Below, piece after piece: positions 13,915 through 46,483 of a DNA stretch of 64,000 bases. The DNA is from an uncultured Rikenella sp. (GTDB taxonomy: Bacteria; Bacteroidota; Bacteroidia; Bacteroidales; VadinHA17), in contig CAZUIF010000004.1 in assembly GCA_964621005.1 (NCBI GenBank), positions 69,204-133,203 on the forward strand, given 5' to 3'. The notes under the pieces were generated by a model that saw only the letters and a list, made by a program, of their open reading frames with translations, was not told the DNA's origin and made no database searches. Each line of letters opens with the position of its first letter. Position 1 is the stretch's first letter. Made by a program: the position numbers and the translations under genes.

Positions 13915-13931
13915 ACACAAAAGAGTACGGC

Positions 13932-15674: not shown

Positions 15675-15788
15675 GCTGGAAATCAGCGAATAAGCCTTCA
15701 TAATATTTTTTTACCGCTCTGATACAAGGGATTGAGTTTTTATTCACCTTTGATTTCCTTTAATTCTTAAGTTATCATTGTCTGAAAG

Positions 15789-17153: not shown

Positions 17154-17172
17154 CCCCGACACCTGACCGAAA

Positions 17173-31963: not shown

Positions 31964-32437
31964 TTATTTCTTTTCAGGGGTGGTTGCCAGGTTGTCGCAG
32001 ACACCGTCCTTGTTGGCATCGACAAATGCCGGACCCTGTCCGTTATGAAGGCCCCTTCCGGGAGCAACTCCCTGTCCGCGTCCGGCACCTCTTCCTGGCA
32101 TCATGCCCTGGCCACGGGGATGGCCGTTCCTCGGACCCTGTGCCAGTCCCTGATGCCGACCCTGGCCGTTCCTCGGACCCTGTGCCAGTCCCTGGCCTTT
32201 ACCGTGGCCGCGATTGACTGCTGCCTGGTTCTCTCCGGCGGAGTAAGCCCGGCGTCCCGGCCTGGTCCCATTCTCAAAATTGTCACATACTCCGTCATTG
32301 TCAGAGTCAATCCATGCATTTCCTGCTGCCTGACCCTGGCCGGGCTGAACCTGCTGTGCAGTCTGTGATTTCTGTCCTGTGGCAATAACCGTCATTGCGG
32401 ATAATACTACCGCTGTAAAGAATAGTTTTGTTTTCAT
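31964..32437 (-). CDS. Secreted low-complexity Gly/Gln/Arg-rich protein with two DxDxDGVCDN motifs
   Basis: 157 aa with a signal peptide (MKTKLFFTAVVLSAMTVIATGQ). A repetitive core (GQGLAQGPRNG x2, plus GRG/GQG runs with His and Met) is flanked by DSDNDGVCDNF and DANKDGVCDNL. Confidence 0.5.
   Translation of the reverse strand: MKTKLFFTAVVLSAMTVIATGQKSQTAQQVQPGQGQAAGNAWIDSDNDGVCDNFENGTRPGRRAYSAGENQAAVNRGHGKGQGLAQGPRNGQGRHQGLAQGPRNGHPRGQGMMPGRGAGRGQGVAPGRGLHNGQGPAFVDANKDGVCDNLATTPEKK
32121..32194. repeat. Perfect 32-bp direct repeat, 2 copies, 42-bp period, inside the CDS
   Basis: TGGCCGTTCCTCGGACCCTGTGCCAGTCCCTG occurs at 32121-32152 and 32163-32194. The period is 14 codons, encoding the GLAQGPRNG(Q/H) repeat. 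Confidence 0.85.
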
Positions 32438-32551: not shown

Positions 32552-34768
32552 CTACAGCTTGATATTTCTGAGTCTCAATGCATTCCACACAACTGAGACT
32601 GAGCTGAAGCTCATTGCTGCAGCAGCGAACATAGGATTAAGCAACGGACCGCCGAAGAGGTGCAGGAGGCCCATAGCGACGGGGATGCCAAGGATATTGT
32701 AGAAGAATGCCCAGAAGAGATTCTGTTTGATGTTCCGGATCGTGCTGTGGCTAAGTTTCAGGGTACGCACCACGTCGCCGAGATCGTTTTTAATAAGCAC
32801 CACATCTGCTGCCTCAATGGCCACATCTGTTCCTGAGCCGATTGCAATACCCACATCGGCCGTGGCCAGGGCGGGGGCGTCGTTTATGCCGTCACCCACC
32901 ATGATGACACTCCTGCCGCTGTTCCTGATATTTCTTATCTCCCCGGCCTTGTCGCCTGGCAGTACGCCGGCAATTACCTTTTCAACTCCGGCCTCGGCGG
33001 CAATCCGTTCAGCGGTCTGAATGCTGTCACCGGTTATCATAATAACCTCAAGGCCCATGGCTCTCATTCCGGCGATTGCTGATGCTGAACCGGAACGGAT
33101 TGTGTCAGCCACCGCTATCACCCCGATGCATTCACCGTTGGCAGCCACGTACATCACTGTTTTTCCGCTGGCTGAAAGATCATCCGCAGTTTTGTCAGCA
33201 GCGGATGTCGCGACTTTTCGCTCACTCATCAGCCTCTTGCTTCCGGCAAGAACGTGAATGCCGTTGACGGCCGCCTCAACACCGTAACCGGGAAGGGCAC
33301 TGAATCTTTCGGGTCCCGGGAAGGAGTATTGTTTCTCTTCTGCAAACCTGATTACTGCTTTTGCCACAGGATGCTCAGACCGGCTTTCCGCGCCTGCGGC
33401 CAGTGATGCCAGCGTCTGTTCATCGGTTCCGCCTGCAGTGATGATGTCTGTCACAACCGGGACACCTGTTGTGATGGTGCCGGTTTTGTCAAGCACGATC
33501 ACGTTGGCTTTGCGTGCCGTTTCCAGGGCTTCACCGCCCTTTATAAGTATACCCTGCTGTGCACCTCTTCCTGTTCCCACCATCACCGCCACCGGTGTGG
33601 CAAGTCCCAGCGCGCAGGGACACGCAATTATCAGTACGGAGATCAGGACCCTGAATGCCAGCTGGAAATCGCCAGTGCCGATAAGCCATGCTGCCCCGCC
33701 AAGAAATGCCAGACTCATTACAACCGGAACGAAGATTCCTGATATCTTGTCTGCCAGCCGGGCTATGGGCGCCTTTGACCCCTGTGCCTCCTCCATCAGC
33801 TTGACAATACGGGCGAGGGTTGTTTCGCTGCCTATCCGGGTAGCACGGTATATCACCGACCCGTTAAGGTTGATGCTGCCGCCTGTGACCTCAGATCCTT
33901 CGCTCTTTTCAACCGGGATGCTCTCTCCGGTAAGCATCGACTCATCAGCCGAGGTGAGTCCGCTGGTGACAATCCCGTCAGTCGGGTACCGTTCTCCGGG
34001 CCTGACAACCACAAGCTCATCCACCTTTACCTTTGCAGCCGGAACCGTCTTCTCCCTGCCGTCTCTTAAAACCGTCGCCAGCGGAGGGGCGAGCGAGAGG
34101 AGCCGGCGTATTGCACTGCCGGCTTTTGCCTTTGACCGTGCCTCGAGGAACCGGCCCATTGTTATCAGGGTAATAATTGTTGCGGCAGATTCATAATAAA
34201 GATTATGTACATAGTGGATATCACCGCCGGCGATACGGACCGTAGCGTAAATACCGTAGAGGAATGCGGCGGCAGTTCCCATGGCCACCAGGGTGTCCAT
34301 TCCGGGATTACCCCTAAGCAGTGTTTTTGTACCTGCAATATAGAAGTTTCGTCCGGTGATAATAACAGGTGTTGTCAGCAGCAGTTGCAGAAAGGCGAAG
34401 ACGAGAGGGCTGGTATCCGGTGCGATGAAGGCAGGCAACTTTAATCCGGCCATTGCTGACATTGCAACTGCAAGGAGAGGGATGGTAGATACCAGTGACA
34501 CTACCAGGCGTTTCTTCAGTTTTGCCGATTCAGGAATGGACGCCCTCCTTTCCTTCTCATCATCTATGGCCTTGTAACCTGCCCTGCTGACAGCTTCAAA
34601 TACCTGGTCCACGGATGTTTTTTTGTCGTCATAGGAGATCGTGAGCCGTTCTGTCGCCAGGTTGACGCTGGCAAAGGTTATGCCATCCACTTTGGCCGCG
34701 GCTTTTTCAACGTGTGCTGCGCATGATGCGCAGTTCATCCCCTCTATCGCAAATGATTTTTCGCTCAT
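32552..34768 (-). CDS. copA: Copper-translocating P1B-type ATPase
   Basis: 738 aa with an N-terminal HMA domain (GMNCASCAAHVEK), a CPC transmembrane metal site (IIACPCALGLATP), DKTGTIT, SEHP and GDGINDAPAL. Confidence 0.93.
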   Translation of the reverse strand: MSEKSFAIEGMNCASCAAHVEKAAAKVDGITFASVNLATERLTISYDDKKTSVDQVFEAVSRAGYKAIDDEKERRASIPESAKLKKRLVVSLVSTIPLLAVAMSAMAGLKLPAFIAPDTSPLVFAFLQLLLTTPVIITGRNFYIAGTKTLLRGNPGMDTLVAMGTAAAFLYGIYATVRIAGGDIHYVHNLYYESAATIITLITMGRFLEARSKAKAGSAIRRLLSLAPPLATVLRDGREKTVPAAKVKVDELVVVRPGERYPTDGIVTSGLTSADESMLTGESIPVEKSEGSEVTGGSINLNGSVIYRATRIGSETTLARIVKLMEEAQGSKAPIARLADKISGIFVPVVMSLAFLGGAAWLIGTGDFQLAFRVLISVLIIACPCALGLATPVAVMVGTGRGAQQGILIKGGEALETARKANVIVLDKTGTITTGVPVVTDIITAGGTDEQTLASLAAGAESRSEHPVAKAVIRFAEEKQYSFPGPERFSALPGYGVEAAVNGIHVLAGSKRLMSERKVATSAADKTADDLSASGKTVMYVAANGECIGVIAVADTIRSGSASAIAGMRAMGLEVIMITGDSIQTAERIAAEAGVEKVIAGVLPGDKAGEIRNIRNSGRSVIMVGDGINDAPALATADVGIAIGSGTDVAIEAADVVLIKNDLGDVVRTLKLSHSTIRNIKQNLFWAFFYNILGIPVAMGLLHLFGGPLLNPMFAAAAMSFSSVSVVWNALRLRNIKL

Positions 34769-34838: not shown

Positions 34839-35909
34839 TTAACGCACCGCAACTGCGAATGCCTCCCTGGTGACCATGCCGTCACAGGCAAGCTGCAGGA
34901 AGTAGATTCCCGGGGTGAGCCCTTCTGCAGAAAGGGTTGTGAATCCGTCGTCAACCTGTCCCGTCATCACCAGGCATCCGGAGATATCGTATACATATAC
35001 TGTGCTCCCGTTGCACGGATATCCGGAAATGCTGACATTCAGGGAATTGTGTGCGGGATTCGGATACAGGGTAACTGACAGGGTCTGTTCTGCAATTTCC
35101 TCGGCGGTATTGAGAGTACCCCATATCCTTTCAGCAAGGAGAGGCTGGTCAATAAAAGGGTTTCGGTTTTTCTGATACCTGTAAACCTCATCGTTGCGTT
35201 TCTTTTCCTTCAGGCTGACGGTATCGGCCCTGTGCCATGCCAGGAGCATCTGCAATGCCCACTGCTTTGGCTGGGCTCCTGTAGTCATGTCGCTGCCCGG
35301 CCACTGGCTGTCTTCTCCATAGTAACGGGTTGCCATATAAAAAAATGTCCGTGCAAGGTCACCCTTGTATTCATCTATCGGCTCAAAGACTTCCCCTGTA
35401 TAGCCCTGGACAGAGCCGGGACCGACCATGCTCCCGTTTGTGGATGTCCATGATGGGGCAGCAGTTTCACCGTAGGGCAGGTTTCCCCTCTTGTTGTTCA
35501 CCCAACCGTCCGTGGGGTAAATGTGAAAAAGGTCAGTATACATTGGCGGAGCATCATTGAACCAGCTTTTGGGAAATGAGTGCTCCCTGTTGTAGCAGTC
35601 GCCTTCACTGTTGTAATTGCCACACTGGCCGGTGAAGATTGCATACAGGTATGCCGGTGTCCCGCCGGGAACATCAGAATATATATCCCAGACCGAAATT
35701 CCGTCACTCTTTACATCAGTGGCAGAGAAACACTGCCACAGGTCAGCATAGGTGACCTCGGTGTGTCCGTCGATGATATCATGAAGTGCCTGCTGAAGTG
35801 CTTTCCCTGCAAGGCCTTCAGCACTGCTGTAGTACCCTTCCGGAATCTGGCCTGCCAGTCTGCCGGTGAGGCAGGCGAGCAGGATCAGGGCAAGGGCACC
35901 TTTTGTCAT
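34839..35909 (-). CDS. Secreted Endonuclease I family nuclease with a T9SS C-terminal sorting domain
   Basis: 356 aa with a signal peptide and Endonuclease I motifs (NREHSFPKSWF, DLFHIYPTDGWVNNKRGNLPYG, GDLARTFFYMATRY). The tail is T9SS-type (LYPNPAHNSLNV...VYVYDISG...GIYFLQL). It shows an ATGA overlap with the upstream lipoprotein gene. Confidence 0.85.
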   Translation of the reverse strand: MTKGALALILLACLTGRLAGQIPEGYYSSAEGLAGKALQQALHDIIDGHTEVTYADLWQCFSATDVKSDGISVWDIYSDVPGGTPAYLYAIFTGQCGNYNSEGDCYNREHSFPKSWFNDAPPMYTDLFHIYPTDGWVNNKRGNLPYGETAAPSWTSTNGSMVGPGSVQGYTGEVFEPIDEYKGDLARTFFYMATRYYGEDSQWPGSDMTTGAQPKQWALQMLLAWHRADTVSLKEKKRNDEVYRYQKNRNPFIDQPLLAERIWGTLNTAEEIAEQTLSVTLYPNPAHNSLNVSISGYPCNGSTVYVYDISGCLVMTGQVDDGFTTLSAEGLTPGIYFLQLACDGMVTREAFAVAVR

Positions 35910-37126
35910 TTTTCTGCAACAATGACATTGTCCACTTCCCAGGTGGTAGTGCGGTTTGTATCGCCGTTATAGACCCATGCAATCCATACCTGGCTGCCCT
36001 TCCAGGGAGTAAGATCAACCTGCCCTGAGCTCACAAACTGGCTGTACCCCGAAGCCGTTAATGCCGGGAGGGTGAAGCTCCTCTCAGTCCATGTGAAATT
36101 CCATGGTGTGGCCGAGCCGTCGTAATTGGTTGAAACATAGAGCTTCATTGTTGCTCCGTTGTCATAACCGTCAGCGCTTTCGAACAGCAGGTAAGGTTGT
36201 GTGGCCAGTGTAAGGTCGATAACAGGTGCTATCATCCATGTGATCACAGACGGCTGACCTGAATTGTAAGCCGTGGCCTGTACCCATTTGCGTCCGGAGA
36301 CCTCATTGCCGTACCATGTCTTGGTTCCGGCCTGGGGATATGTTATCCACCCGGCAAGGGTGCTTACATCGGCATACTTTACAAGTGCCGTGAAGTCCTG
36401 CGTCAGGTAAACGGTGCCTGCCCCTCCGCATCTTTCACCGGTCATCCCGTTTTCAGTCTCGTCCCTTAACAGGAACTGTATGCCGTTGAATTCGGACACG
36501 ACTCCCTTGATGAACCCGTTACCTGTGGGCACTGGCACAGAGGAGAATGTGGCGTCAGAACGGGTATAAACCTCAAGCTCGTTGTCGCAGTCGGTAATAA
36601 GCTTTTCACCGGAGTAGGTTCCTGGCTCGGAGAACTGCACGTTGTCAATCCTGACATACTCTGCCTGGTGTTTGCCGGCAAGAATATCTTCTATCGTCAC
36701 TGTTTTTGGTTCCGTTGCGGGAGGAGTCAGGTTCACCACGGTTGTCTGGTCAGCAATACTTATGTCACCAAACTGCAGCAATCCGTTGTATTCAGTGAAG
36801 GAGGCCCCGCGGCACAGTATTTTTACCTCTGAATCGCGTGAGAATGTGTTGTTCCCGGTGACAGTCAGGCAGATCCCGGCAGTGGAATCCTGCAGGTATG
36901 CCACAAAGGATGGGATGTTCCCCAGCTCAGGGGTGAGGGTAATAATGCCCTGGATATAAACGTTAGTATCGATTTTCGTGATGCCGTCTTCGAACATTTC
37001 ACGAAGCTGTTTTACGGTAATGTGGTCAATCACCGGTTCGGGCGGTGGTACGGGTTCCCTGCTGCACGAAGCGGCAATTAAAATTGATGCTGCAATCCAG
37101 AGTCTGGTTATAGATTTGATAGTCAT
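35906..37126 (-). CDS. Surface lipoprotein with two OB-like modules and a C-terminal beta-sandwich module (DUF5689 / choice-of-anchor-J-like)
   Basis: 406 aa with a lipobox (LIAASC). It is a paralogue of the next gene. Module 1 carries YLQDSTAGICL, and module 2 ends GFIKGVVSEFNGIQFLLRD. The family names are from memory and were not searched. Confidence 0.6.
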   Translation of the reverse strand: MTIKSITRLWIAASILIAASCSREPVPPPEPVIDHITVKQLREMFEDGITKIDTNVYIQGIITLTPELGNIPSFVAYLQDSTAGICLTVTGNNTFSRDSEVKILCRGASFTEYNGLLQFGDISIADQTTVVNLTPPATEPKTVTIEDILAGKHQAEYVRIDNVQFSEPGTYSGEKLITDCDNELEVYTRSDATFSSVPVPTGNGFIKGVVSEFNGIQFLLRDETENGMTGERCGGAGTVYLTQDFTALVKYADVSTLAGWITYPQAGTKTWYGNEVSGRKWVQATAYNSGQPSVITWMIAPVIDLTLATQPYLLFESADGYDNGATMKLYVSTNYDGSATPWNFTWTERSFTLPALTASGYSQFVSSGQVDLTPWKGSQVWIAWVYNGDTNRTTTWEVDNVIVAEK

Positions 37127-37140
37127 TTTATTGTATGGTA

Positions 37141-38520
37141 TTATCGGGCTGCCGAGACAGCTATATTGTCAATGCGGTACGTCGTACTCTCAGTATTGCT
37201 TCCTGTGTATCTGAAGGCAATCACTGCAGATTTGCCTGCGGCAACAGGAAGGTTCACATTACCGGAGTTGATGAAGGTATGGTCCGGATCACTCTGTTTT
37301 GCCAGCACGGCGTCAACGGGAGTCCAGGTGGCTGATGAAATATTATTGCCGTTATAGTCAGTGGAGATCAGTACCTCCATCGGGAAGTTTGTCCCGGTGT
37401 GCGCCCAGTATGCCTTGGCGGTCTGGAAGGAAAGGATCTTCTGGGTCGAGATGTTCACCGGCCTGGTGATCAGCCAGGTTACCATGGACGTAAGGTTAGA
37501 GTTGTATCCTGTAGCCTGGGCATAGCTGTTGCCGCTGAAGACCTTGGCGAGCCATATGCGGCCGCCGGCAGTGGCAATATTCTGCCACCCGGTAATGTAG
37601 ATATCGTCATTGTCGCCGAAGCTGTCGAAATTCTCGCTGAGCGTTTCAACAGGAGTACCCAGTGGCTGATCGACAACGCCGCAACGGGTGCCTGTCATGT
37701 TCACCTCGTCAAAATCACGAACCAGGAACTGGTATGTGCCGTTGAAGATTGTAACGATGCCTGTAATTGAACCGTTGCCTGAAGGCAGAACCTTTCCTGC
37801 AGCTGACGAGTAACCGCTAGTCCGGACTATCAGTGTTTTGTCGTTGCAGTCTTCGAGCGTTCTGTTTTCGGTTACCATTTCCTCTGCATTTGCCCAGGTC
37901 AGACCTGTCATGGCATCCGTGAACTGGACTCCGTCAAGCTTCACAAGGCGCCCCAGGTAAGCACTGCTTTTTGCCTGGGTGACTGTCAGTACTGAGGGAT
38001 AAGTGGGGTTGCCGATTGAGAGTTTCAGGCATTGCCTGTCCATATTCATTCCTCCGACGCGTACTGTTCCGTCTTCCTGGAAGTACGGTGTTCCTCCCAG
38101 CTGCCAGAAATTTCCGTAGTCGCCCAGCCAGAGACCTTTAAGGTTGACAATGACTGAATCACCGATATAAAGCCCGCTGTTGGCTTCAAAAAGGAGTCTG
38201 AGGCCCCCTGTGGCATCCTCGATAAAGGCTTCCTTGTAGAAATTGCCGTCTTTCTTGTCACTGGCCGTAATTATTCCCCGAAGGGACCAGTCGTTCTCAA
38301 TTTCAACCGGATTCCGTTTTGTATAGTCTGAGATTGCAAGCTGGTCAGCATACAGTGCCTTTACCTGCTGCACAGTCACTGTTTCCCCTGGTACGAACTC
38401 TTCAACAGGAGGCGGTGTTTCATTATTGTCGGTGCATGATACTGAGAAAAGAAGTGCTGCCGAAACTGCTGCAAGTATGAATATATTTCTGATTTTCTTC
38501 ATGATCTGTTCCTCCTTCAT
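37141..38520 (-). CDS. Surface lipoprotein, paralogue of 35906..37126 (same three modules)
   Basis: 459 aa with a lipobox (LLFSVSC). The likely true start is MKKIRN at 38502. Motifs are FIEDATGGLRLL and GSITGIVTIFNGTYQFLVRD. It begins 1-19 nt after the TonB-dependent receptor stop. Confidence 0.6.
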   Translation of the reverse strand: MKEEQIMKKIRNIFILAAVSAALLFSVSCTDNNETPPPVEEFVPGETVTVQQVKALYADQLAISDYTKRNPVEIENDWSLRGIITASDKKDGNFYKEAFIEDATGGLRLLFEANSGLYIGDSVIVNLKGLWLGDYGNFWQLGGTPYFQEDGTVRVGGMNMDRQCLKLSIGNPTYPSVLTVTQAKSSAYLGRLVKLDGVQFTDAMTGLTWANAEEMVTENRTLEDCNDKTLIVRTSGYSSAAGKVLPSGNGSITGIVTIFNGTYQFLVRDFDEVNMTGTRCGVVDQPLGTPVETLSENFDSFGDNDDIYITGWQNIATAGGRIWLAKVFSGNSYAQATGYNSNLTSMVTWLITRPVNISTQKILSFQTAKAYWAHTGTNFPMEVLISTDYNGNNISSATWTPVDAVLAKQSDPDHTFINSGNVNLPVAAGKSAVIAFRYTGSNTESTTYRIDNIAVSAAR

Positions 38521-38521
38521 T

Positions 38522-41239
38522 TTAAAACCTGATGCTTAGATTGATGAAGTAGTTGAAGCCGTTGGCGTAGTATACGCGCGGCTGGAACAGCTCAGGTCTT
38601 CCGGGATCATAGCGGTACTGTTCATATCCGCCGGTTATCATTGACCTGTTATTGAGAATGTTGCTGAGATTTGCACTCAGGTTTATGTAAACATCGTCAA
38701 TCCTCCATGATTTTCCGGCGAAGATGTCAATCAGGAATCCCGGGGCAGCCTTCTGCTGGTAATCCCAGTAAGGGTAATAACCGCTGTCATCCCTGGTGCG
38801 GGTCACCGGGTTGAAGTCGAGGTATATATCATCATACCAGCTCCCGGTTATTCCGGCCCACCAGAACCTGGAGGAGTTATATTCCGCACCAAGTGCAAGT
38901 GCAGTCTGCGGGGTGCCGCTCTGCCTGAAATACTGTATCCACACCTCCTCATTGCTCAGGACCTGACTGTTGTTGTCCTGGGTGATAGTAATCCTCGGAT
39001 TGGATATCCACAGGAACTGTCCGACCGATGCCACGGCATTGACCGTGAGTTCAGAGGTGATGCCTATTTCAGCACCGGCTTCAATGCCGTAGTTCTCCTT
39101 GTCAATGCCTGTCATGGCATAGTTGACCAGTGTTTTCCACTCATCATGATAGAAGCTTGTAACCTCGGTCTGGTTCATGAAACGGGTATAGTAGGCGGTA
39201 ATTCTTCCTGTCAGAACCGGAGAGCGCAGCACATAGCTCAGGTCACCCGAGAATATCGTCTCTTCCCTCAGTTCAGGAGTCACAGTGTTCCTGGTACGCG
39301 GTGAAAGGAAGCTGTTCCTGAAGAGGGGAGGATTCGTGGTGAAAAGGGCATTGAAGAGTATCATATGACGGCCGGTGAAACGGTAATCGCCTCCTGCCTT
39401 TACTCCCCACGTGGGAAAGTCGAGCTTTTCCGAGTTCCCGAAGGAGTTGTCCGGAAAAAGGCCCTTGCGCATGAGACCCTCGCGCCACATCGAGGTATAC
39501 CGTGTGTGTGCGCTGAGGTACAGCCTGTAGCGGTTCCCGGTATAGGTTCCGGTGCCCCACAGCGTAGCTCCCCTCTGGAAAGCATAATAGCTGTTGCCGA
39601 ATGTTTCGCCCTCGGTTACCGCGTTATCCGGATTGTTGAGGTCATTCTGGTAGGCTTCAGGATTATCGGGATAATCCCTTTCGGCAAACTGGTCGACGTC
39701 AAGCCAGTAGTCGCCCCCAAGCAGGTCACTGACAACGCTGAAGTTATGTCCGCGGTATATGTCTATCAGTAGGCCCCCGGTAATATTAAGGTTGCCCGTG
39801 AGGTTCCACGAAGCCCTGCTGTTTAGCTGGAACTGTGAAAGGTCATTGCGACGGTCTTCAACGATATATTTTGAACGGTTCCCGGAAAAATTATTTCCTT
39901 CGATCCCGCCTTCGTTATACACTGTATATATATTCTTCCTGTTGGCAAAATAAAAATGGTCCCAGTCTATCTGGCTTACGGAAGGGTCCGACTTCCATGC
40001 CTGGATGATCGCTTCACGGTCTGTTACATCATAGTAATAACTGGGAAGCTTACGGTAATAGTCAGGTCTGGGATCGAGAACATCATACCAGTTCAGAGCC
40101 GTATAGCCGCTTTTGCCGAACCAGTAACCGGCAGTGGTCTGGACATCCAGTTTTTCCGAAGGTTTCCAGGTATGTGCAAGTGTCACAAGGGGCTTGTTGT
40201 TGCTTCTGACCCGGGCGCTGCGCACCTCACCGTCCTGGTAGCCCCAGTATGGATTATAATAGTTGCTTCCGGCAAGGTCATAGGCTTCCTGGGTTGATCC
40301 TCCTCCGACACCTCTTTCATAAAGCGCGTCAAGGGCTGTAAGGTTAAGGCTGTGCCGGCTGTTGAACTTTTTCTCCACGGCAAGAAAGAACGAGTTGGCG
40401 TTATAGAATGTTCCCTCTTCATAGCCGCGGATGCCCCAGCGCCTGGAGTAGCTGCCGGTAAATGCCCAGTTATTCTTAAGGAGTCCTGTACTGTAAGTGA
40501 GCATAGCCCTGTTGGGGTATGTACGGTTGGAGCGCGAATAGATGGCCCGGATGCCTGACCGGTATTCGGAAGCCCTGGTGTTGATCCGGGTGGCACCTCC
40601 CACCGGTTCAAAGAGAAAACCGATCGGTTCGGGACCGGAGCTGACCATGGAGCTGCGCATCACATCATTCAGTCCGCCCCAGTTTGACCAGTATGGAGCG
40701 CCTGACTCAATATCGTTAAGGACGAAGCCGTTCAGGCTGACATTCTGGTAGTTGTTGTCATATCCCCTTGACCTGAACATTGCCTGTCCGAAAGTATAGG
40801 CTGCCGTGCTCATGTAGATATCTGCAGAGGAACTAAGCACACCCTGGATGGACTGCGTCTCGAAACCGTCCTCCGAGAAGCCTTCCATCGTTGCAACAGA
40901 CCCAAGGTCCATCATGAATGCAGCCATCTCGGGAAGCAGGACCGGACCAATATCGGTTGTTTCTCCTTCAGACACAGTGACGCTTACGATTGCCTGTTCA
41001 TGGTCAGTCATATTGATAAACAGCATCTGCCTGCCTTCATTTACCGTGACTGTGAAAGTGCCGTCCTCACCTGACCGACCGAGTTCCTTCCCGGAAGCGT
41101 CTGTTATGGTTGCCCCTGAAAGCGGAGTGCCGCTGCTCTTTCCGGATATGGATCCCCTTACGGTACCCTGCTGCGCAAATATGCCGGTACACGAGAGGAT
41201 AAAAACTAAAACCAAGATAATCTGTTTGTTATGTCTCAT
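38522..41239 (-). CDS. TonB-dependent outer-membrane receptor with an N-terminal CarboxypepD_reg-like domain (non-SusC/SusD type)
   Basis: 905 aa with a signal peptide and a carboxypeptidase-regulatory-like domain (GTVRGSISG...GATITD...DGTFTV). It has a plug region (FRSRGYD...VSLNGFVLND), a long beta-barrel with aromatic-rich strands and a terminal ...NLSIRF. No SusD-like gene is adjacent. Confidence 0.88.
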   Translation of the reverse strand: MRHNKQIILVLVFILSCTGIFAQQGTVRGSISGKSSGTPLSGATITDASGKELGRSGEDGTFTVTVNEGRQMLFINMTDHEQAIVSVTVSEGETTDIGPVLLPEMAAFMMDLGSVATMEGFSEDGFETQSIQGVLSSSADIYMSTAAYTFGQAMFRSRGYDNNYQNVSLNGFVLNDIESGAPYWSNWGGLNDVMRSSMVSSGPEPIGFLFEPVGGATRINTRASEYRSGIRAIYSRSNRTYPNRAMLTYSTGLLKNNWAFTGSYSRRWGIRGYEEGTFYNANSFFLAVEKKFNSRHSLNLTALDALYERGVGGGSTQEAYDLAGSNYYNPYWGYQDGEVRSARVRSNNKPLVTLAHTWKPSEKLDVQTTAGYWFGKSGYTALNWYDVLDPRPDYYRKLPSYYYDVTDREAIIQAWKSDPSVSQIDWDHFYFANRKNIYTVYNEGGIEGNNFSGNRSKYIVEDRRNDLSQFQLNSRASWNLTGNLNITGGLLIDIYRGHNFSVVSDLLGGDYWLDVDQFAERDYPDNPEAYQNDLNNPDNAVTEGETFGNSYYAFQRGATLWGTGTYTGNRYRLYLSAHTRYTSMWREGLMRKGLFPDNSFGNSEKLDFPTWGVKAGGDYRFTGRHMILFNALFTTNPPLFRNSFLSPRTRNTVTPELREETIFSGDLSYVLRSPVLTGRITAYYTRFMNQTEVTSFYHDEWKTLVNYAMTGIDKENYGIEAGAEIGITSELTVNAVASVGQFLWISNPRITITQDNNSQVLSNEEVWIQYFRQSGTPQTALALGAEYNSSRFWWAGITGSWYDDIYLDFNPVTRTRDDSGYYPYWDYQQKAAPGFLIDIFAGKSWRIDDVYINLSANLSNILNNRSMITGGYEQYRYDPGRPELFQPRVYYANGFNYFINLSIRF

Positions 41240-41343
41240 AAGATTTTTAAAAGAAAGGGTTGAAAGATAAGGTTTTTATAAGAAATGACAAAAGACAAAC
41301 GAAGAAGACTAAATATATTACCTTTGCCGTCACAGATCGGAAA

Positions 41344-42384
41344 ATGATGCGGAAGATCACATTTATTGCACTGCTTCTCTCTTTAGTAGTCACAGCGGAA
41401 GCACAGCAGCAGGTAAGGGCAGGGCTCATTGCCTTCTATAACCTGGAGAACCTGTTTGATACAATTGACACGCCTGGTGTACTGGATGAGGAGTTCACTC
41501 CCGGAGGGCCGAATAAATGGACCGGGAGCAGGTATCTTGAAAAGCTTGACAATATGGCCCTGGCTATCTCCAGGATAGGGGAAGATGACGGCTGGAGCGG
41601 AGGCCCTGCGGTGCTTGGTGTCTCGGAGATCGAGAACCGGCAGGTGCTCGAGGATCTTGCGGCCCATCCGTTACTGAAGGAGTCAAACTACCAGATAGTT
41701 CATTATGATTCTCCTGACCTTCGCGGAGTGGATGTGGCACTTATGTACCGTCCCAGGTTCTTCAGGGTGACTGGATCTGCCAGTCCTTCACTGGCGCTGA
41801 CTGACGAGTCAGGGGAGCCTGTCTTTACGCGCGATCAGCTTGTTGTCTCAGGAGTTTTTGACGGTGAACCCATGCACTTCATCGTTTGCCACTGGCCTTC
41901 CCGTTCAGGAGGAGAGGTGACATCACGTCCGCGCCGCAATGCTGCGGCAGCCCTCTCCCGCAGGCTTGTTGACAGCCTCATGGCCGAAGACAGCAATGCA
42001 AAGGTGTTTGTAATGGGCGACCTTAACGATGATCCGGTGGATGAGAGCCTTCAGAAATACCTGAGAGCTTCCGGCAAGCCGGACAGACTTCGCAACGGAG
42101 AGCTTTACAATGCAATGTTCCCTCTCTTCCGGAAAGGTGTGGGATCACTGTACTACCGCGACGGAATGAACCTGTTTGACCAGATAATAATGACCCCTTC
42201 ACTTCTTGGTAACGATTACTCGTCATATAAACTGGCTCAAGCACGGGTATTCAATTCAACCTTCCTTGTACAGAAGGACGGACAATACAAGGGTTATCCC
42301 TTAAGGTCATTCGTCGGAACAGTCTGGCAGGGAGGATACAGTGACCACTTCCCGGTCTACGTTATAATCGTTCGTAAGGTTTAA
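41344..42384 (+). CDS. Secreted endonuclease/exonuclease/phosphatase (EEP) family nuclease, ExeM/NucH-type
   Basis: The ORF track starts at 41260, but the signal peptide MMRKITFIALLLSLVVTAEAQ begins at 41344. EEP motifs are FYNLENLFD, VLGVSEIEN, MGDLNDDP and the C-terminal YSDHFPV. Confidence 0.8.
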   Translation: MMRKITFIALLLSLVVTAEAQQQVRAGLIAFYNLENLFDTIDTPGVLDEEFTPGGPNKWTGSRYLEKLDNMALAISRIGEDDGWSGGPAVLGVSEIENRQVLEDLAAHPLLKESNYQIVHYDSPDLRGVDVALMYRPRFFRVTGSASPSLALTDESGEPVFTRDQLVVSGVFDGEPMHFIVCHWPSRSGGEVTSRPRRNAAAALSRRLVDSLMAEDSNAKVFVMGDLNDDPVDESLQKYLRASGKPDRLRNGELYNAMFPLFRKGVGSLYYRDGMNLFDQIIMTPSLLGNDYSSYKLAQARVFNSTFLVQKDGQYKGYPLRSFVGTVWQGGYSDHFPVYVIIVRKV

Positions 42385-42392
42385 CCGTCAGT

Positions 42393-43343
42393 TTAACGGC
42401 TGATTCCTTCTGGTCTTATTTTTATTTCCACCGGCCGGTGGTCTGACAGGACTTCATTATATTCAGGATAGCAGGGGCTTACCTTCAATACAACCGTGGT
42501 GTCAATTGCAGGAAATAGTTCGTCTGTCACAAGTATGTGGTCCAAATGGCTCGGCCAGGAAGGGTATGACCACCACAGCTGGCTACCCTTTGCAATTTCC
42601 ATATCGGCAAATCTGTAGCCTGATGCATCCTGGATGAAATTGATGAACGGATTTTCCTCAGCGTATGATGATGATATCTCGTCATTATAATCACCCAGCA
42701 TCACAACCGCCTCATCCGGATGCTCTGCGTCAAGGTAATCCTTGAGCTGCTGCGATGCGGACCGCCGGCTGCTCTCGTTTTCTGCTCCCCCGCAGCATTT
42801 CAGGTGCAGGTTGATAAGCAGGATCTCCTTCCCGGATCCCCTGTGTTTTACCTTTATTTCAAACGGAGGCCGAGGGAAGGCACGGCTGTCATCCTCAAAA
42901 AGAGTCACGGCCGTACCGGGAAGAATTTCAACTTCGCTCTCCTTAACGAGGTAAGCCAGGTTCCATTCGTCATTACTGACCGGGTAGAAAACGCCGGTCC
43001 AGCCGGGCATCAGCTTTACGAGCCGGTTGAAATCAGCCTGGGATGCCACTTCCTGCAAGGCGACAATATCCGGGCTTATGGTCTTTATAAGCGCCGAAAG
43101 CGCCGTCACACTTGTATATCCTGCCTTGGGAAATCCCTCAACATTGAAGCTGACTATATCTAGGGAGGAGGATGTGCCCGGGGTAACGCATGCCGCGAAT
43201 ATCCCTGTATCATCCGGTGACGGAGGATCAGGAACACGCCGGCAAGAGGGACCGGCCAATGTGGCTGCTGCGGCGAGCAACCAGACTGATCTGTGCAGGA
43301 ACCAACGAAACATAGCCTGCAAATTTGGCAATTTTAAATTCAA
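42393..43343 (-). CDS. Secreted (possibly lipoprotein) EEP-family nuclease/phosphatase
   Basis: 316 aa with a hydrophobic N-terminus ending LAGPSC. EEP motifs are SFNVEGF, ALQEV, LGDYNDE and LSDHRPVE. The start is uncertain (43343 or the internal Met at 43313). Confidence 0.8.
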   Translation of the reverse strand: MNLKLPNLQAMFRWFLHRSVWLLAAAATLAGPSCRRVPDPPSPDDTGIFAACVTPGTSSSLDIVSFNVEGFPKAGYTSVTALSALIKTISPDIVALQEVASQADFNRLVKLMPGWTGVFYPVSNDEWNLAYLVKESEVEILPGTAVTLFEDDSRAFPRPPFEIKVKHRGSGKEILLINLHLKCCGGAENESSRRSASQQLKDYLDAEHPDEAVVMLGDYNDEISSSYAEENPFINFIQDASGYRFADMEIAKGSQLWWSYPSWPSHLDHILVTDELFPAIDTTVVLKVSPCYPEYNEVLSDHRPVEIKIRPEGISR

Positions 43344-43483
43344 AATTCAATACCTGCCCGCGGATGTTGCCGGAATGTGATTTACATAATCCGGATCTGT
43401 GATTAAAGGGGAGTGATATGCAAACAGAAAGCCGCCCCGGAATTCCGGGACGGCTTTCTCAATGTAAGGTGAGAATCAGTAAG

Positions 43484-46483
43484 CTATTCCTTTACAAATC
43501 TTTTCATCACGGCACCATTCTCTGTGGTAAGCCTGACGAAGTAAATACCCCTTGGCAGGTGTCCGACAGGAATATTAACGAGGCTGTCACCCTCGCATCT
43601 GATGGCAGACACCTTGTCGCCGGTCACGTCAAAGACTTCTATCATTGTTACCCCGGAGAGACCGGAAGCGGTAAGCTCCTCACGGGCCGGCACCGGATAA
43701 ATCCTGTAGGCAGCACCGGTATTATCCTCGATACCTGTTGCAACCGAAAAGACCACGGTGTAGTTTTTAACCACCGACTGGTCATGAGAGGTGACCTTGA
43801 CTGTTGTAGTCCTGGCAGCAGCATCTCCTGTCAGGGCGCTGGCCGGGGTTATTACAACCGTTGCGTTGGCCTCGGCCGGTGTGGCGGTTACAGCCGGGAC
43901 GGCAGTAGTCCCCGAGGGGAGTGAGACGTTATATGTCATTGTTCCTGAAGCAAATCCCGTGACAGTGGTTCCGCTTACCTTCAGATCACTCAGCGTTGCA
44001 TCTGATGAATAGACAACAAAGTCAGCGTAGTTGCGCGGTGTGAGCTGTGCATCCGCTGCGTATACGGTAGCGATTCCGGTTACGTCAGCCATGTAGGGAA
44101 TCACCTTCCCGTTCAGGTCAGTACCCAGGAATATTGTCCTGAGTATTGTCGCATCAGAGCCGACGCTAATGCTGTAGTTTTTCTTTTCCTGGAAGACGGC
44201 GGTACCATTGGCGTCAGTAAACTTAACACCCATAATTTTCACCAGTTCAGATTCATAGGTTTCCTGGTTGCCGGTAAACTCTGCGACTGTGATCACCTGG
44301 GGAGTAAGTGTGTTTCCGGTCGAGGAGGCTGCACCCGGGTCACGGTAAGGTATAAACTCCAGCAGCTTATTGTACTCTAAAAGGGTGCCGGTGAGTCCCT
44401 TGATTCCGTCCCCGACGCTGTATGTGGTTGTGATTTTTGCGTCCGCATCGTCAATAAGTATTCCGGCAGAAGCGTCCTGGATATACTTCTGATGTCTCTG
44501 CGAGTCATTGATACCTGACACCACAACCTCGCCTGTCACCTGGTAAATCCTTGTATAATTCTCTGCAGCAACTGCACGCAGTGCGGCAAGGTCTGCAACA
44601 GCGATTATCGGGTTAAAGATGATTGAATAGGTCTGGGTTGTAACACCGTCGGCGGCAGTGACTATCACAGTGGTTGTCCGGGCCTCAGCATCACCGGAAA
44701 GGTTTGTTGCATTGGTGAGTACAGCTGATGCTGCCGGGTCTGTTGGGGTATATGTCACTACCGGTACCGCAGTCACAGAAGGTTCCAGGATCATCTCATA
44801 AGTGAGGGTTGCCGGGTCAAATGATGGTATGGTGACCCCGTCTGCCTTCAGGTCCGAGAGAGTTGCGTCAGAGCCCGCGAGCAGGTAGCCGGTAATTCTG
44901 ACGTCATCTACTTCCCATGTGGCAGCTCCATCAGCAGTTGATTCATACAGGAATGCAACATATACGGTTCCTGTAAAGGCTGACAGATTGAATTCGCCGG
45001 AATTCACTGATTCCCAGTTGCCTGTCGAGAAGCTGAAGTTTGATGTAATATCTGTCCATGTTGCCGCATTGACATCAGTAACAGTATAGTTGCCGTTGAA
45101 GTTGGATGAGACGAGCACCTTCAGCGCAGGGCCGGAATAATTCAACATGGTCCGGAAACCAAGCATATTTGTTTCTGATGCATCGAGGTTGATTGCCGGG
45201 GAAATGAGGTAGTCAAGGTTGGGATTACTGGTCCCTGATACATATCCGGATATCTTCGCATAACCTGTTGTCTGTGCCCAGACCTGGTCTCCCGTTATGC
45301 TCACAGCCGTGAACGGTGCCAGGGAGCCGGAGGTCTGAAAATCGGCGTTAAAGATCACATCCGGCGGACGGACTGTATACAGGTCCACTTTGACAGTCTC
45401 AGTCTGGCGGTTTGGAGTAGGCTCGTCGTCTTCAGCCACGACGTAGATGTCATAATTGGTTTTGTCGGTCAGGCCGGTCAGAGATGCGCTGTAGGTGCTG
45501 CCGCCTGCGGTGACATCTATGATACCATTTGTCAGCAGTGTCACCATTCCGTAGTTTGTTCCTGCGACAACCTCGGCCACTGTGGGTGCGGTTGAACCGT
45601 CAGGAACTACAACGTAGTAAGCTTTCCCGGGCTCATCCATACTTACCTGCAGGTCAGCCTGGGTTGTATTTATGTTTACAACTTTCGGGAATCCATAGGA
45701 GAAAACAGGAGGAGTGAGATCAGCTGATATAGATGCGTTTACGGCATCGTTCCATGTGTTTGCAACTCTTATTGCATCAATGGTTACGGAAGGGGCAGAA
45801 CTTGATCCTCCCTGCCTCAATGCGACCAATGTAATTTGTGTGGCATCGGTTGTAGAGTTATCTGCTGCTATGATGGTGGGGGTTGCCGGTTCATCCGATC
45901 CGACAACAGGGTCTACAAAAATACTTGCCTCATCATCAGTGTTTGTCGCGCTATTGAACAGATACTTCAGCACAATCAGGTTTGTTGTCCCTGTTGTATA
46001 CTCAGCAGTTGTAAACTGTACAGCAGGACTGGTACCTGATTTGGCAATGCCGATAAGGTATTTGTCTGCTGCAGAACCCTGTTTAAGCCAGAGTCTGCCT
46101 TTAAAAATTGTTCCACCCTGAGTAAAGTGGAAGAAATAATCTCCCGTTGTGGTGGTGGCGGAGACCTTCAGCAGGAATGCTGCATATACAGCTCCGGAAG
46201 TGATTGTGCCTACAGAAGTACTATAGTCCAAACCATCCTTCATTGTGATACTCCTGCCACTTCCTGACAGAGTATAATCTGTATATGAAAGAGATTCATC
46301 TATAACTTTTGCTGCAGTACCAGAGTTTGCTGAATTCCATATGGAGGCTGGGTTAACAGGCAGGTCTCCTACTTCATACTGGAAGTTTTCAACCAGGAGC
46401 GGCTGTGAGTAAACCTGCTGCACCGAAAATGCAGTTAACAGTATTACAGGCAGCAATGTAATGAGGGGTAGAGATCTTTTCAT
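43484..46483 (-). CDS. Large multidomain T9SS-secreted protein
   Basis: About 1000 aa. The domains are LamG-like, Fn3-like, a choice-of-anchor-J-like module, two cadherin-like beta-sandwich repeats, two OB-like modules and a T9SS CTD. I take the start at MKRSLPLITLLPVILL (46483) because it gives a signal peptide; the track ORF extends to 46561. The two internal repeats begin SDATLSDLK(A/V).G.T. The OB-like module carries YIQDASAGILI, as in the two lipoproteins. The tail is IYPVPAREEL...VTMIEVFDVTG...GIYFVRL...MKRFVKE. Confidence 0.75.
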   Translation of the reverse strand: MKRSLPLITLLPVILLTAFSVQQVYSQPLLVENFQYEVGDLPVNPASIWNSANSGTAAKVIDESLSYTDYTLSGSGRSITMKDGLDYSTSVGTITSGAVYAAFLLKVSATTTTGDYFFHFTQGGTIFKGRLWLKQGSAADKYLIGIAKSGTSPAVQFTTAEYTTGTTNLIVLKYLFNSATNTDDEASIFVDPVVGSDEPATPTIIAADNSTTDATQITLVALRQGGSSSAPSVTIDAIRVANTWNDAVNASISADLTPPVFSYGFPKVVNINTTQADLQVSMDEPGKAYYVVVPDGSTAPTVAEVVAGTNYGMVTLLTNGIIDVTAGGSTYSASLTGLTDKTNYDIYVVAEDDEPTPNRQTETVKVDLYTVRPPDVIFNADFQTSGSLAPFTAVSITGDQVWAQTTGYAKISGYVSGTSNPNLDYLISPAINLDASETNMLGFRTMLNYSGPALKVLVSSNFNGNYTVTDVNAATWTDITSNFSFSTGNWESVNSGEFNLSAFTGTVYVAFLYESTADGAATWEVDDVRITGYLLAGSDATLSDLKADGVTIPSFDPATLTYEMILEPSVTAVPVVTYTPTDPAASAVLTNATNLSGDAEARTTTVIVTAADGVTTQTYSIIFNPIIAVADLAALRAVAAENYTRIYQVTGEVVVSGINDSQRHQKYIQDASAGILIDDADAKITTTYSVGDGIKGLTGTLLEYNKLLEFIPYRDPGAASSTGNTLTPQVITVAEFTGNQETYESELVKIMGVKFTDANGTAVFQEKKNYSISVGSDATILRTIFLGTDLNGKVIPYMADVTGIATVYAADAQLTPRNYADFVVYSSDATLSDLKVSGTTVTGFASGTMTYNVSLPSGTTAVPAVTATPAEANATVVITPASALTGDAAARTTTVKVTSHDQSVVKNYTVVFSVATGIEDNTGAAYRIYPVPAREELTASGLSGVTMIEVFDVTGDKVSAIRCEGDSLVNIPVGHLPRGIYFVRLTTENGAVMKRFVKE

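Follow-up and report, generated by a model that had tools for sequence, protein, structure and literature searches.

Organisation of the gene cluster

The window analysed here is a stretch of 64,000 nucleotides from an uncultured Rikenella sp. (contig CAZUIF010000004.1, positions 69,204 to 133,203). At ~34839-46483 it carries a cluster of seven genes, which encode a surface protein sorted by the type IX secretion system (T9SS), a nuclease of the endonuclease/exonuclease/phosphatase (EEP) family, an Exo_endo_phos_3 nuclease, a putative TonB-dependent transporter, two tandem lipoproteins, named D1 and D2 here, and an endonuclease I. D1, D2 and the T9SS protein have the DUF5689 domain in common, and the cluster, with its three nuclease genes (endonuclease I, Exo_endo_phos_3 and EEP), is probably a system for the capture and import of extracellular DNA. 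The following features were identified, with positions counted from the first letter of the window.

34839..35909, minus strand: endonuclease I, 356 aa, with a signal peptide and a T9SS type-A C-terminal domain (CTD) (Pfam Endonuclease_1, E 6e-74; Por_Secre_tail, E 1.7e-8)
35906..37126, minus strand: D2, a 406-aa lipoprotein with the lipobox ...IAASC and a Pro-rich tether (Pfam DUF5689, E 4.5e-32; NCBIfam choice_anch_J, E 5e-10)
~36458-37021, minus strand: DUF5689 domain of D2, a tandem oligonucleotide/oligosaccharide-binding (OB) unit
~35918-36406, minus strand: choice-of-anchor J domain of D2
37141..38520, minus strand: D1, a 459-aa lipoprotein with the lipobox ...FSVSC followed by TDNNETPPP (Pfam DUF5689, E 8e-52; DUF5017, E 1.4e-8)
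~37702-38385, minus strand: DUF5689 tandem OB unit of D1
~37156-37641, minus strand: choice-of-anchor J/DUF5017 domain of D1
38522..41239, minus strand: putative divergent TonB-dependent transporter, 905 aa (Pfam CarbopepD_reg_2, E 4.5e-6)
41260..42384, plus strand: Exo_endo_phos_3 nuclease with a signal peptidase I (SPI)-type signal peptide, probable start ATG at ~41341 (PF19580, E 1.5e-123)
42393..43343, minus strand: EEP-family nuclease, 316 aa, with a signal peptide and a possible lipobox ...LAGPSC (Pfam Exo_endo_phos, E 7.6e-13)
43484..46483, minus strand: T9SS-sorted surface protein, 999 aa (Pfam DUF5017, E 5e-17; Cadherin-like, E 0.002; DUF5689, E 1.4e-10; Por_Secre_tail, E 6.6e-11)
Within the 999-aa protein, from the N- to the C-terminus: signal peptide; N-terminal beta-rich region and Ig-like unit; choice-of-anchor J at ~44846-45349; cadherin-like repeat at ~44621-44845; DUF5689 tandem OB unit at ~44021-44605; second cadherin-like repeat; T9SS CTD at ~43487-43702

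The transporter, D1, D2 and endonuclease I genes form a head-to-tail run on the minus strand and are linked by operon-like spacing. The start of D1 follows the transporter stop after 1 nt, D1 and D2 are separated by 14 nt, and the ATG of endonuclease I overlaps the stop codon of D2 (ATGA), these two being separate, translationally coupled genes. The preliminary description of this DNA had expected the catalytic partner of the lipoproteins to be an EEP protein; the nuclease coupled to D2 is instead endonuclease I. It had also missed the organising element of the locus, the transporter gene directly upstream of D1 and D2. The Exo_endo_phos_3 gene is divergent from the transporter operon, and the EEP and T9SS protein genes lie beyond it on the minus strand. 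The ATG at 46483 was taken as the start of the T9SS protein because its 999-aa orthologue P0212 aligns from 1-998 to 1-998. A scan with sigma-70 promoter and terminator models, which is uninformative for Bacteroidota, gave the same result as shuffled sequences.

Both the 999-aa protein and endonuclease I have an N-terminal signal peptide and exceed the cut-offs of Por_Secre_tail and TIGR04183 (27 and 23 bits), with 42.8 and 43.1 bits for the former and 35.1 and 34.5 bits for the latter, as is expected of T9SS type-A cargo. The mature lipoproteins start with CTDNNE (D1) and CSREP (D2). Since neither strictly fits the C(x/xx)(D/E)(D/E) lipoprotein export rule quoted in PMC12478041, their surface exposure is deduced from the context.

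Shared domains of D1, D2 and the 999-aa protein

It had been proposed that the three proteins share an OB-like module 1, a module 2 and a beta-rich module 3 in permuted order. The sharing is borne out by BLASTP and by Pfam and NCBIfam matches above their cut-offs, and all the motifs quoted in that proposal are present where it placed them. D2 and D1 are full-length colinear paralogues (27% identity, E 1e-43). In D1, the segment 48-270 aligns with residues 640-845 of the 999-aa protein (E 1e-8) and the segment 315-456 with residues 420-557 (E 3e-7), so that the domain order is swapped. D2 matches the 999-aa protein with E 6e-10 over module 3 and E 0.002 over module 1.

DUF5689 (PF18942; 217 positions, gathering threshold 28.6 bits) was recognised over model positions 2-217 in D2 (112.1 bits), D1 (176.7 bits) and the 999-aa protein (41.9 bits). 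The choice_anch_J model (NCBIfam NF038128; 162 positions, cut-off 30 bits) gave 39.7, 69.7 and 47.5 bits in the same order, and DUF5017 (PF16409) gave 34.9 bits for D1 and 62.4 bits for the 999-aa protein. DUF5689 and the choice-of-anchor J/DUF5017 unit occupy residues 36-223 and 241-403 of D2 and residues 46-273 and 294-455 of D1. In the 999-aa protein, counted in the numbering of its 1025-residue open reading frame (ORF), choice-of-anchor J/DUF5017 (405-572) is followed by a cadherin-like domain (573-647), DUF5689 (653-847) and the T9SS sorting domain (954-1025).

Modules 1 and 2 make up a single domain, DUF5689, each of them being one OB half of it. As they never separate, the swap involves two units and not three, so that of the proposed permutation the altered order stands and the number of modules does not. 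The order found in the 999-aa protein is the outcome of domain shuffling, with a cadherin-like spacer between the units. Circular permutation was rejected, as a cadherin-like domain lies between the units in this protein and both orders exist as separate genes elsewhere. In a MAFFT alignment of 23 sequences, including homologues from elsewhere, the motifs remain conserved and three positions do not vary at all, namely the Gly in 'LRGIITA', the Asp in (I/L)(E/Q)D and the Arg in 'L(V/L)RD'.

Some features distinguish the individual copies. D1 carries at residues ~130-165 a conserved insertion of 20-25 residues in the first OB fold (OB1), GDYGNFWQLGGTPYFQEDGTVRVGGMNMDRQCLKLS, which is absent from D2 and from the T9SS-type DUF5689 and is a candidate element for docking to the transporter. 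Two cadherin-like repeats of the type 'SDATLSDLK(A/V)(D/S)G(V/T)T...' flank the DUF5689 of the 999-aa protein (573-647 and ~851-940 in the 1025-residue ORF), and a weak cadherin-like unit also precedes the DUF5689 of P0121, its nearest small homologue. The N-terminal ~350 residues of the 999-aa protein gave no Pfam match, and a 353-aa query gave 0 matches against PDB sequences. This beta-rich region recurs at the N-terminus of many T9SS proteins and in a 617-aa Prolixibacteraceae counterpart.

Predicted folds and charge

In the AlphaFold2 model of the D1 DUF5689 domain (pLDDT 90.9, pTM 0.86) two consecutive OB barrels are seen, in agreement with the OB-like character attributed earlier to module 1. 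The FIEDATGG motif forms the beta2-beta3 hairpin of OB1 and the motif GSITGIVTIFNGTYQFLVRD the last hairpin of OB2. The top PDB matches in Foldseek (E 2e-4 to 1e-2) were all tandem-OB nucleic-acid binders, namely Teb1 AB (3u58), Pyrococcus abyssi RPA (8aaj), the HIN domain of IFI16 (2oq0/4qgu), p204 (5z7d), p202 (4jbm/4l5r), RPA70 (1jmc) and TEBP (1jb7), and ten of the ten matches with E <= 0.001 were tandem-OB DNA binders. At the sequence level the DUF5689 profile had 0 matches among PDB sequences, and the DUF5689 segments matched no classical OB family even when the Pfam scan was relaxed to E 10.

The full-length D1 model (pLDDT 90.1) shows module 3 as a jelly-roll beta-sandwich. Among known structures it comes closest to the Lys-gingipain cleaved-adhesin domains (4itc, E 9e-6; TM 0.60 on the target), and next to Eph ligand-binding domains, MAM domains and CBM6/22. 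As modelled, it is a generic ligand-binding or adhesin-type fold and not a nucleic-acid fold. The nucleic-acid-binding folds expected of the shared modules were therefore recovered for DUF5689, while module 3 proved to be a cleaved-adhesin/MAM-like beta-sandwich. D1 and D2 had no SusD-family match in Pfam or NCBIfam, their fold being OB plus beta-sandwich.

About ten K/R positions are conserved among the DUF5689 sequences, within domains that are acidic overall. The secreted proteins of the locus are likewise all acidic (pI 4.3-5.3) except the Exo_endo_phos_3 nuclease, which hints at cation-bridged binding or at another ligand.

Relationship to ExeM/NucH nucleases

The [FY][IL][QE]D..[AG]G motif had been likened to the OB-like region that precedes the EEP domain in ExeM/NucH nucleases, and profile-profile comparison upholds this. 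The reference was WP_249395660.1 of Deinococcus sp. QL22 (595 bits on NF033681), found by tblastn with the EEP protein of the window; 75 homologues of its pre-EEP region were collected, and the resulting 79-sequence alignment was compared by hhalign. All DUF5689 sequences together gave Prob 91.9% (P 7e-7, 100 columns), the T9SS type, including the 999-aa protein, 97.7% (P 2.3e-12, 102 columns) and the D1 type 88.9% (P 2.4e-6, 99 columns), and the D2 type alone gave 0.6% (P 0.098, 26 columns). None of thirty column-shuffled controls and one reversed control exceeded a score of 18.2, whereas the real comparisons reached 51-86; the best shuffled P was 0.084. The alignment spans OB1 and reaches into the first strand of OB2, and the T9SS-type OB1 and ExeM/NucH have in common the pattern V.G.V...(F/Y)(I/L)QD...GI.(I/V)...GD.(I/V).(L/V).G....Y....Q. 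Judged from these profiles, the OB1 of DUF5689 is remotely homologous to the pre-EEP OB-like region of ExeM/NucH.

Direct scans with hidden Markov models (HMMs) are nearly blind to this relationship, which is why it becomes clear only when profiles are compared. One of 14 T9SS-type DUF5689 proteins matched NF033681 (P0121, E 0.0055), the DUF5689 proteins of the window had no match to this model, and profile comparisons with one ExeM sequence on its own reached Prob 20.8% and 0.2%. No protein of the window passes the ExeM_NucH model NF033681 (cut-off 300 bits). The 316-aa EEP protein has its best NCBIfam match there, on the EEP part of the model only (32.6 bits, E 4e-8), and gives 29.6 bits for exonuclease III.

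DUF5689 is also found fused to a nuclease. Plasmid p1 of Flammeovirga kamogawensis (locus L006, NZ_CP076130.1, 14688-20121) has a homologous transporter followed by two DUF5689 proteins, one of 1041 aa with DUF5689, two DUF6359, choice-of-anchor J and LTD domains, and one of 731 aa in which DUF5689 (42-265) is fused to Endonuclease_1 (475-723). This fusion and the ExeM homology together constitute the strongest sequence-based argument that DUF5689 acts on DNA.

The transporter

The 905-aa protein has an N-terminal CarboxypepD_reg-like domain and a barrel that ends in ...SIRF, and a plug-like segment, 'FRSRGYDNNYQNVSLNGFVLND' / 'RGYDNNYQNVSLNGFVLND', could be read directly from its translation. 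As a single sequence it had 0 matches in the PDB, and as a profile it gave a marginal match to the SusC N-terminal domain (E 0.023). Among 13 orthologues, five matched the Plug family and one the TonB_dep_Rec_b-barrel family. From these sequence features we conclude that it is a divergent, DdbC-like TonB-dependent transporter.

In one related locus (L001, 7249-9972) the transporter is intact with 907 aa, and in a near-identical contig (L002, 7249-9972) it is split into 612 and 293 aa, a difference that could stem from a frameshift, from misassembly or from a pseudogene variant. Comparable splits were seen in L016, L026, L033, L043 and L072.

Conservation in related genomes

A scan of one genome per species with patterns derived from D1 yielded 72 related loci, which were annotated by ORF calling and HMMs. 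Those with 45-89% identity to D1 belong to Bacteroidales, Prolixibacteraceae, Marinilabiliaceae and Carboxylicivirga, and more distant ones (~30% identity) to Flavobacteriales, Crocinitomicaceae and Cryomorphaceae. The cultivable relatives Carboxylicivirga linearis and C. caseinilyticus (L051 and L052) have the core of transporter, D1 and a second DUF5689 gene. Throughout the Bacteroidales clade the arrangement is the one of the window: T9SS protein, EEP, Exo_endo_phos_3 on the opposite strand, transporter, D1, D2 and endonuclease I. The transporter gene is directly upstream of D1 wherever that flank is present, the endonuclease I gene lies downstream of D2, and the Exo_endo_phos_3 gene keeps its position and orientation even in Flavobacteriales. 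The core common with the Flavobacteriales loci consists of the transporter, D1 and the divergent Exo_endo_phos_3. Median identities to the window are 73% for the transporter, 75% for Exo_endo_phos_3, 62% for D1, 64% for D2, 60% for EEP and 57% for endonuclease I.

A second DUF5689 gene directly 3' of the first was found in 54 of the 60 loci of this clade with enough flank, and in 46 of these 54 it is an orthologue of the 406-aa type (D2), so that the duplication must be old and both copies maintained. In seven loci of the Flavobacteriales type (L058, L062-L064, L066, L073 and L075) the second gene encodes a protein of ~460-550 aa with choice-of-anchor J before DUF5689, which is the order of the 999-aa protein; this second protein seems to be a surface protein in its own right.

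The T9SS protein is the variable part of the cluster. It occurs with the N-domain, choice-of-anchor J and DUF5689 in the closest relatives (~1000 aa), without DUF5689 (~617 aa), or reduced to DUF5689 and the sorting domain (190-720 aa). Large T9SS proteins with its modules number in the thousands (8205 representatives at E <= 1e-3), and of 21 sampled large relatives 17 contain DUF5689, seven LTD and one a 5'-nucleotidase domain.

A different type of DUF5689 protein was seen at L003 (9992-12352) and L004 (5374-7734), where lipoproteins of ~783 aa (P0082, with the relatives P0081, P0083, P0105 and P0119) have one DUF5689 and, after it, three choice-of-anchor J-like units. In their loci only one DUF5689 gene follows the transporter, which has 834 aa and a Plug domain that can be recognised.

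Proposed function of the locus

Two homologous systems have been studied genetically. In Bacteroides thetaiotaomicron the depletion of DNA and the release of nucleobases require ddbABCDEF (Sharan et al., PNAS 2025, PMC12478041); AlphaFold3 predicts an interface between DdbD, which contains DUF5689, and the transporter DdbC, and the locus resembles a polysaccharide utilization locus (PUL) (PMC12478041). In Riemerella anatipestifer the deletion of RA0C_RS04915, a CarboxypepD_reg barrel, or of RA0C_RS04920, with DUF5689 and DUF5017 (choice-of-anchor J), abolishes natural transformation (Huang et al. 2021, PMC8459023). Homologues of these two genes are adjacent in most Flavobacteriaceae (PMC8459023), and a ddbB-like nuclease gene adjoins the Riemerella pair (PMC12478041). 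The DUF5689 lipoprotein has been proposed as the substrate-binding partner of the transporter (PMC12478041, PMC8459023).

The window has the marks of a ddb locus. Its DdbC-like transporter gene is directly followed by the gene of D1, a DdbD-like DUF5689 lipoprotein, and its nucleases are an Endonuclease_1 with T9SS CTD, an Exo_endo_phos_3 with signal peptide and an Exo_endo_phos with signal peptide. We are therefore inclined to suggest, with a probability of about 0.7, that this is a ddb-type system of an anaerobic member of the Bacteroidales for the capture and import of extracellular DNA, in which D1, D2 and the 999-aa protein are predicted to be non-catalytic surface receptors. As such it is a known kind of system, of which this clade has a variant with tandem D1/D2 and with endonuclease I and a third OB protein delivered by T9SS.

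The 999-aa protein, anchored by T9SS, would hold its OB domain away from the cell on Ig- and cadherin-like spacers and, jointly with the T9SS-sorted endonuclease I alongside it, would capture and fragment extracellular DNA. The lipid-anchored D2 and D1 would bind the fragments at the outer membrane. D1 is likely to be the substrate-binding partner (lid) of the transporter, given that it is encoded directly after it and is kept even in the distant Flavobacteriales loci, and D2 could be an accessory binder analogous to SusE/F. The transporter would move oligonucleotides into the periplasm, where the Exo_endo_phos_3 nuclease, with its signal peptide, would degrade them; the EEP nuclease may act at the surface or in the periplasm. 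In this scheme we infer that DUF5689 binds DNA, how the three copies share the work, and what substrate is imported and at what size.

A more tentative extension of this scheme, which we consider less likely than not, is that the three DUF5689 proteins form a tiered relay feeding polymeric or oligomeric DNA to the TonB-dependent transporter. The spacer-extended T9SS OB module, the copy nearest to the ExeM/NucH OB region, would fish DNA at a distance, D2 would concentrate it at the membrane, and D1 would dock on the barrel by its 20-25-residue OB1 insertion and feed a DNA end into the transporter. DUF5689 would then be an acidic, possibly metal-bridged extracellular DNA-binding OB family common to transporters and to nucleases, namely ExeM/NucH and the endonuclease I fusions, in Bacteroidota.

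Several points weigh against the assignment to DNA capture and import. The DUF5689 domains of the window are all acidic, with pI 4.3-4.6 and a net charge of -8 to -16, and such acidity is unusual among DNA-binding OB or HIN domains. Oligosaccharides and proteins are also bound by OB folds, the TM-scores of the Foldseek matches are low (0.3-0.4), and module 3 resembles adhesin and carbohydrate-binding modules. In the D1 model the most conserved motif, (I/L)(Q/E)D..GG, lies in the OB1 hairpin and may be structural rather than a contact site, and D2 alone had no detectable similarity to the ExeM pre-EEP alignment by hhalign. The loci were retrieved with D1-derived patterns, and hence the tandem arrangement in 54 of 60 describes this clade and not all Bacteroidota. 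The locus is linked to DdbC (WP_008762511.1) and DdbD (WP_048698952.1) of B. thetaiotaomicron through a common Pfam family and a similar layout. On the Riemerella-based model NF052645 ('M949_1556 family lipoprotein', cut-off 475 bits) D1 reaches 200.2 bits (model positions 4-456) and D2 96.8 bits, both below the cut-off; by these scores they are homologous to the family and fall outside that subfamily. Finally, PMC8459023 and PMC12478041 report no DNA-binding data for a DUF5689 protein.

The main rival to a nutritional role is a transformation machine of the Riemerella type, in which D1 and D2 would capture double-stranded DNA and the transporter would pass long DNA to the periplasm for ComEC-dependent uptake and recombination. 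The homologous RA0C_RS04915 and RA0C_RS04920 are essential for transformation (PMC8459023), D1 has the DUF5689 plus DUF5017 architecture of RA0C_RS04920 and its 200-bit match to NF052645 is full-length, and the common core with the Flavobacteriales loci also fits. Nevertheless the core is joined in this clade by endonuclease I, which is secreted and non-specific, and by a second EEP nuclease; these would destroy transforming DNA, and their presence parallels the nutritional ddb loci of gut Bacteroidales (PMC12478041), for which transformation could not be demonstrated (PMC12478041, Discussion). Moreover no competence genes were seen in the annotated part of the window. Nutrition is favoured since the cluster is rich in nucleases, and we consider transformation unlikely.

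Still less probable is a role of the DUF5689/choice-of-anchor J proteins in adhesion or glycan binding at the surface, with the nucleases serving another purpose, for example the remodelling of extracellular DNA in biofilms. The gingipain-, Eph/MAM- and CBM6/22-like module 3, the acidity of the domains and the ability of OB folds to bind sugars would suit such a role, as would the CBM_4_9, Big_5 and other adhesin-type modules borne by large T9SS relatives and the ddbF variant linked to biofilm formation (cited in PMC12478041). It is opposed by the strict co-conservation of transporter, DUF5689 and nuclease genes across the related loci, by the fusion of DUF5689 to Endonuclease_1 and its association with LTD, by the homology between OB1 and an OB-like region in a family of extracellular nucleases, and by the genetics of the two homologous systems, which points to DNA (PMC12478041, PMC8459023).

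The weakest alternative is a literal form of the scenario in the preliminary description, namely that an ancestral ExeM/NucH enzyme was split into OB binders and EEP proteins acting as a non-covalent nuclease independent of the transporter: it draws on the OB1 homology, on the EEP part of ExeM_NucH as best NCBIfam match of the 316-aa protein and on the LTD-EEP and ExeM/NucH genes on plasmids that tblastn finds with this protein, but we hold it to be very improbable, as 32.6 bits against a cut-off of 300 is barely above exonuclease III, the lipoprotein genes are coupled to the transporter and endonuclease I and not to EEP genes, most Flavobacteriales loci lack the EEP gene and retain D1, no match to the second OB fold or to the beta-sandwich partner of DUF5689 was seen in ExeM, and the nuclease found fused to DUF5689 is Endonuclease_1. 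Separate binding-type and catalytic proteins do exist, as had been proposed. DUF5689 occurs in many combinations, among them the endonuclease I fusion, and a split NucH enzyme describes the locus less well than a ddb-type cluster does.

If the locus is indeed a system for DNA capture and import, it bears on how DNA or oligonucleotides pass the outer membrane of Bacteroidota without a competence pilus, the understanding of which is just beginning. Outside gut Bacteroides the ddb-type system is found here as a conserved seven-gene unit with two distinct DUF5689 lipoproteins and T9SS-delivered parts. Linking DUF5689 by sequence to ExeM/NucH leads to a concrete DNA-binding hypothesis, for which three natural versions of the domain are at hand. 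In practice the gain is mainly in annotation, since thousands of "DUF5689 / choice-of-anchor J / hypothetical" proteins are found in Bacteroidota genomes and metagenomes. This link, as judged from profiles, is a useful annotation-level result and, like the T9SS-sorted components and the D1/D2 paralogy, is not reported in PMC8459023 or PMC12478041.

Other features of the window

At 12550-18909 (plus strand) the genes for an SNF-family Na+ symporter (454 aa) and a Na+/alanine symporter (580 and 578 aa) form a pair that occurs twice in tandem, downstream of NuoF-like and FeFe-hydrogenase genes; the second copy was deduced from matching ORF lengths. A 157-aa secreted protein rich in Gly, Gln and Pro is encoded at 31964-32437 (minus strand), with 'GLAQGPRNG' repeats and a D-x-D-G-V-C-D-N motif near each end. 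It adjoins a putative heavy-metal P-type ATPase (32552-34768), judged by eye from its translation.

Comparison with known systems

With the ddb loci of gut Bacteroidales the window has in common a divergent TonB-dependent transporter, a DUF5689 lipoprotein encoded next to it, secreted or periplasmic nucleases and a PUL-like layout. The DUF5689 protein has in both cases a HIN/p202-like tandem OB fold, and ddb has in addition a signal peptidase II (SPII) protein, DdbE, proposed as an accessory binder (PMC12478041). The window differs in that endonuclease I and the third DUF5689 protein are T9SS cargo and not lipoproteins, and in that it has two tandem DUF5689 plus choice-of-anchor J paralogues, which form two orthologous groups.

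The Riemerella pair, a CarboxypepD_reg outer-membrane barrel and a DUF5689/DUF5017 lipoprotein, corresponds to the transporter and D1, to which the window adds D2, endonuclease I, the EEP nuclease and the T9SS protein. The function is transformation in Riemerella and more probably nutrition in the window.

In ExeM/NucH (NF033681; Shewanella ExeM and Vibrio Xds type) it is the pre-EEP region that appears homologous to the OB1 of DUF5689. Unlike these enzymes, the DUF5689 proteins have no fused EEP domain and possess a second OB fold and a choice-of-anchor J partner. The HIN-200 proteins (p202, AIM2, IFI16) and RPA/Teb1/TEBP have, like DUF5689, two consecutive OB folds in a compact unit, whereas DUF5689 has 8-15% sequence identity to them and is acidic, extracellular and bacterial. 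On the predicted models we regard this resemblance as an analogy at the level of the fold and not as family membership.

The SusC/SusD/SusE/SusF systems follow the same logic, with a TonB-dependent transporter, an adjacent lipoprotein lid, accessory binders and surface or periplasmic hydrolases. A preprint on the lids of Bacteroides TonB-dependent transporters mentions neither DUF5689 nor DNA. In the window the lid would be an OB plus beta-sandwich protein in place of the TPR-like SusD, the hydrolases are nucleases, and T9SS delivers part of the surface machinery. The resemblance of D1 and D2 to SusD lids would thus be one of role only, while the transporters of both kinds of system carry an N-terminal CarboxypepD_reg-like extension.

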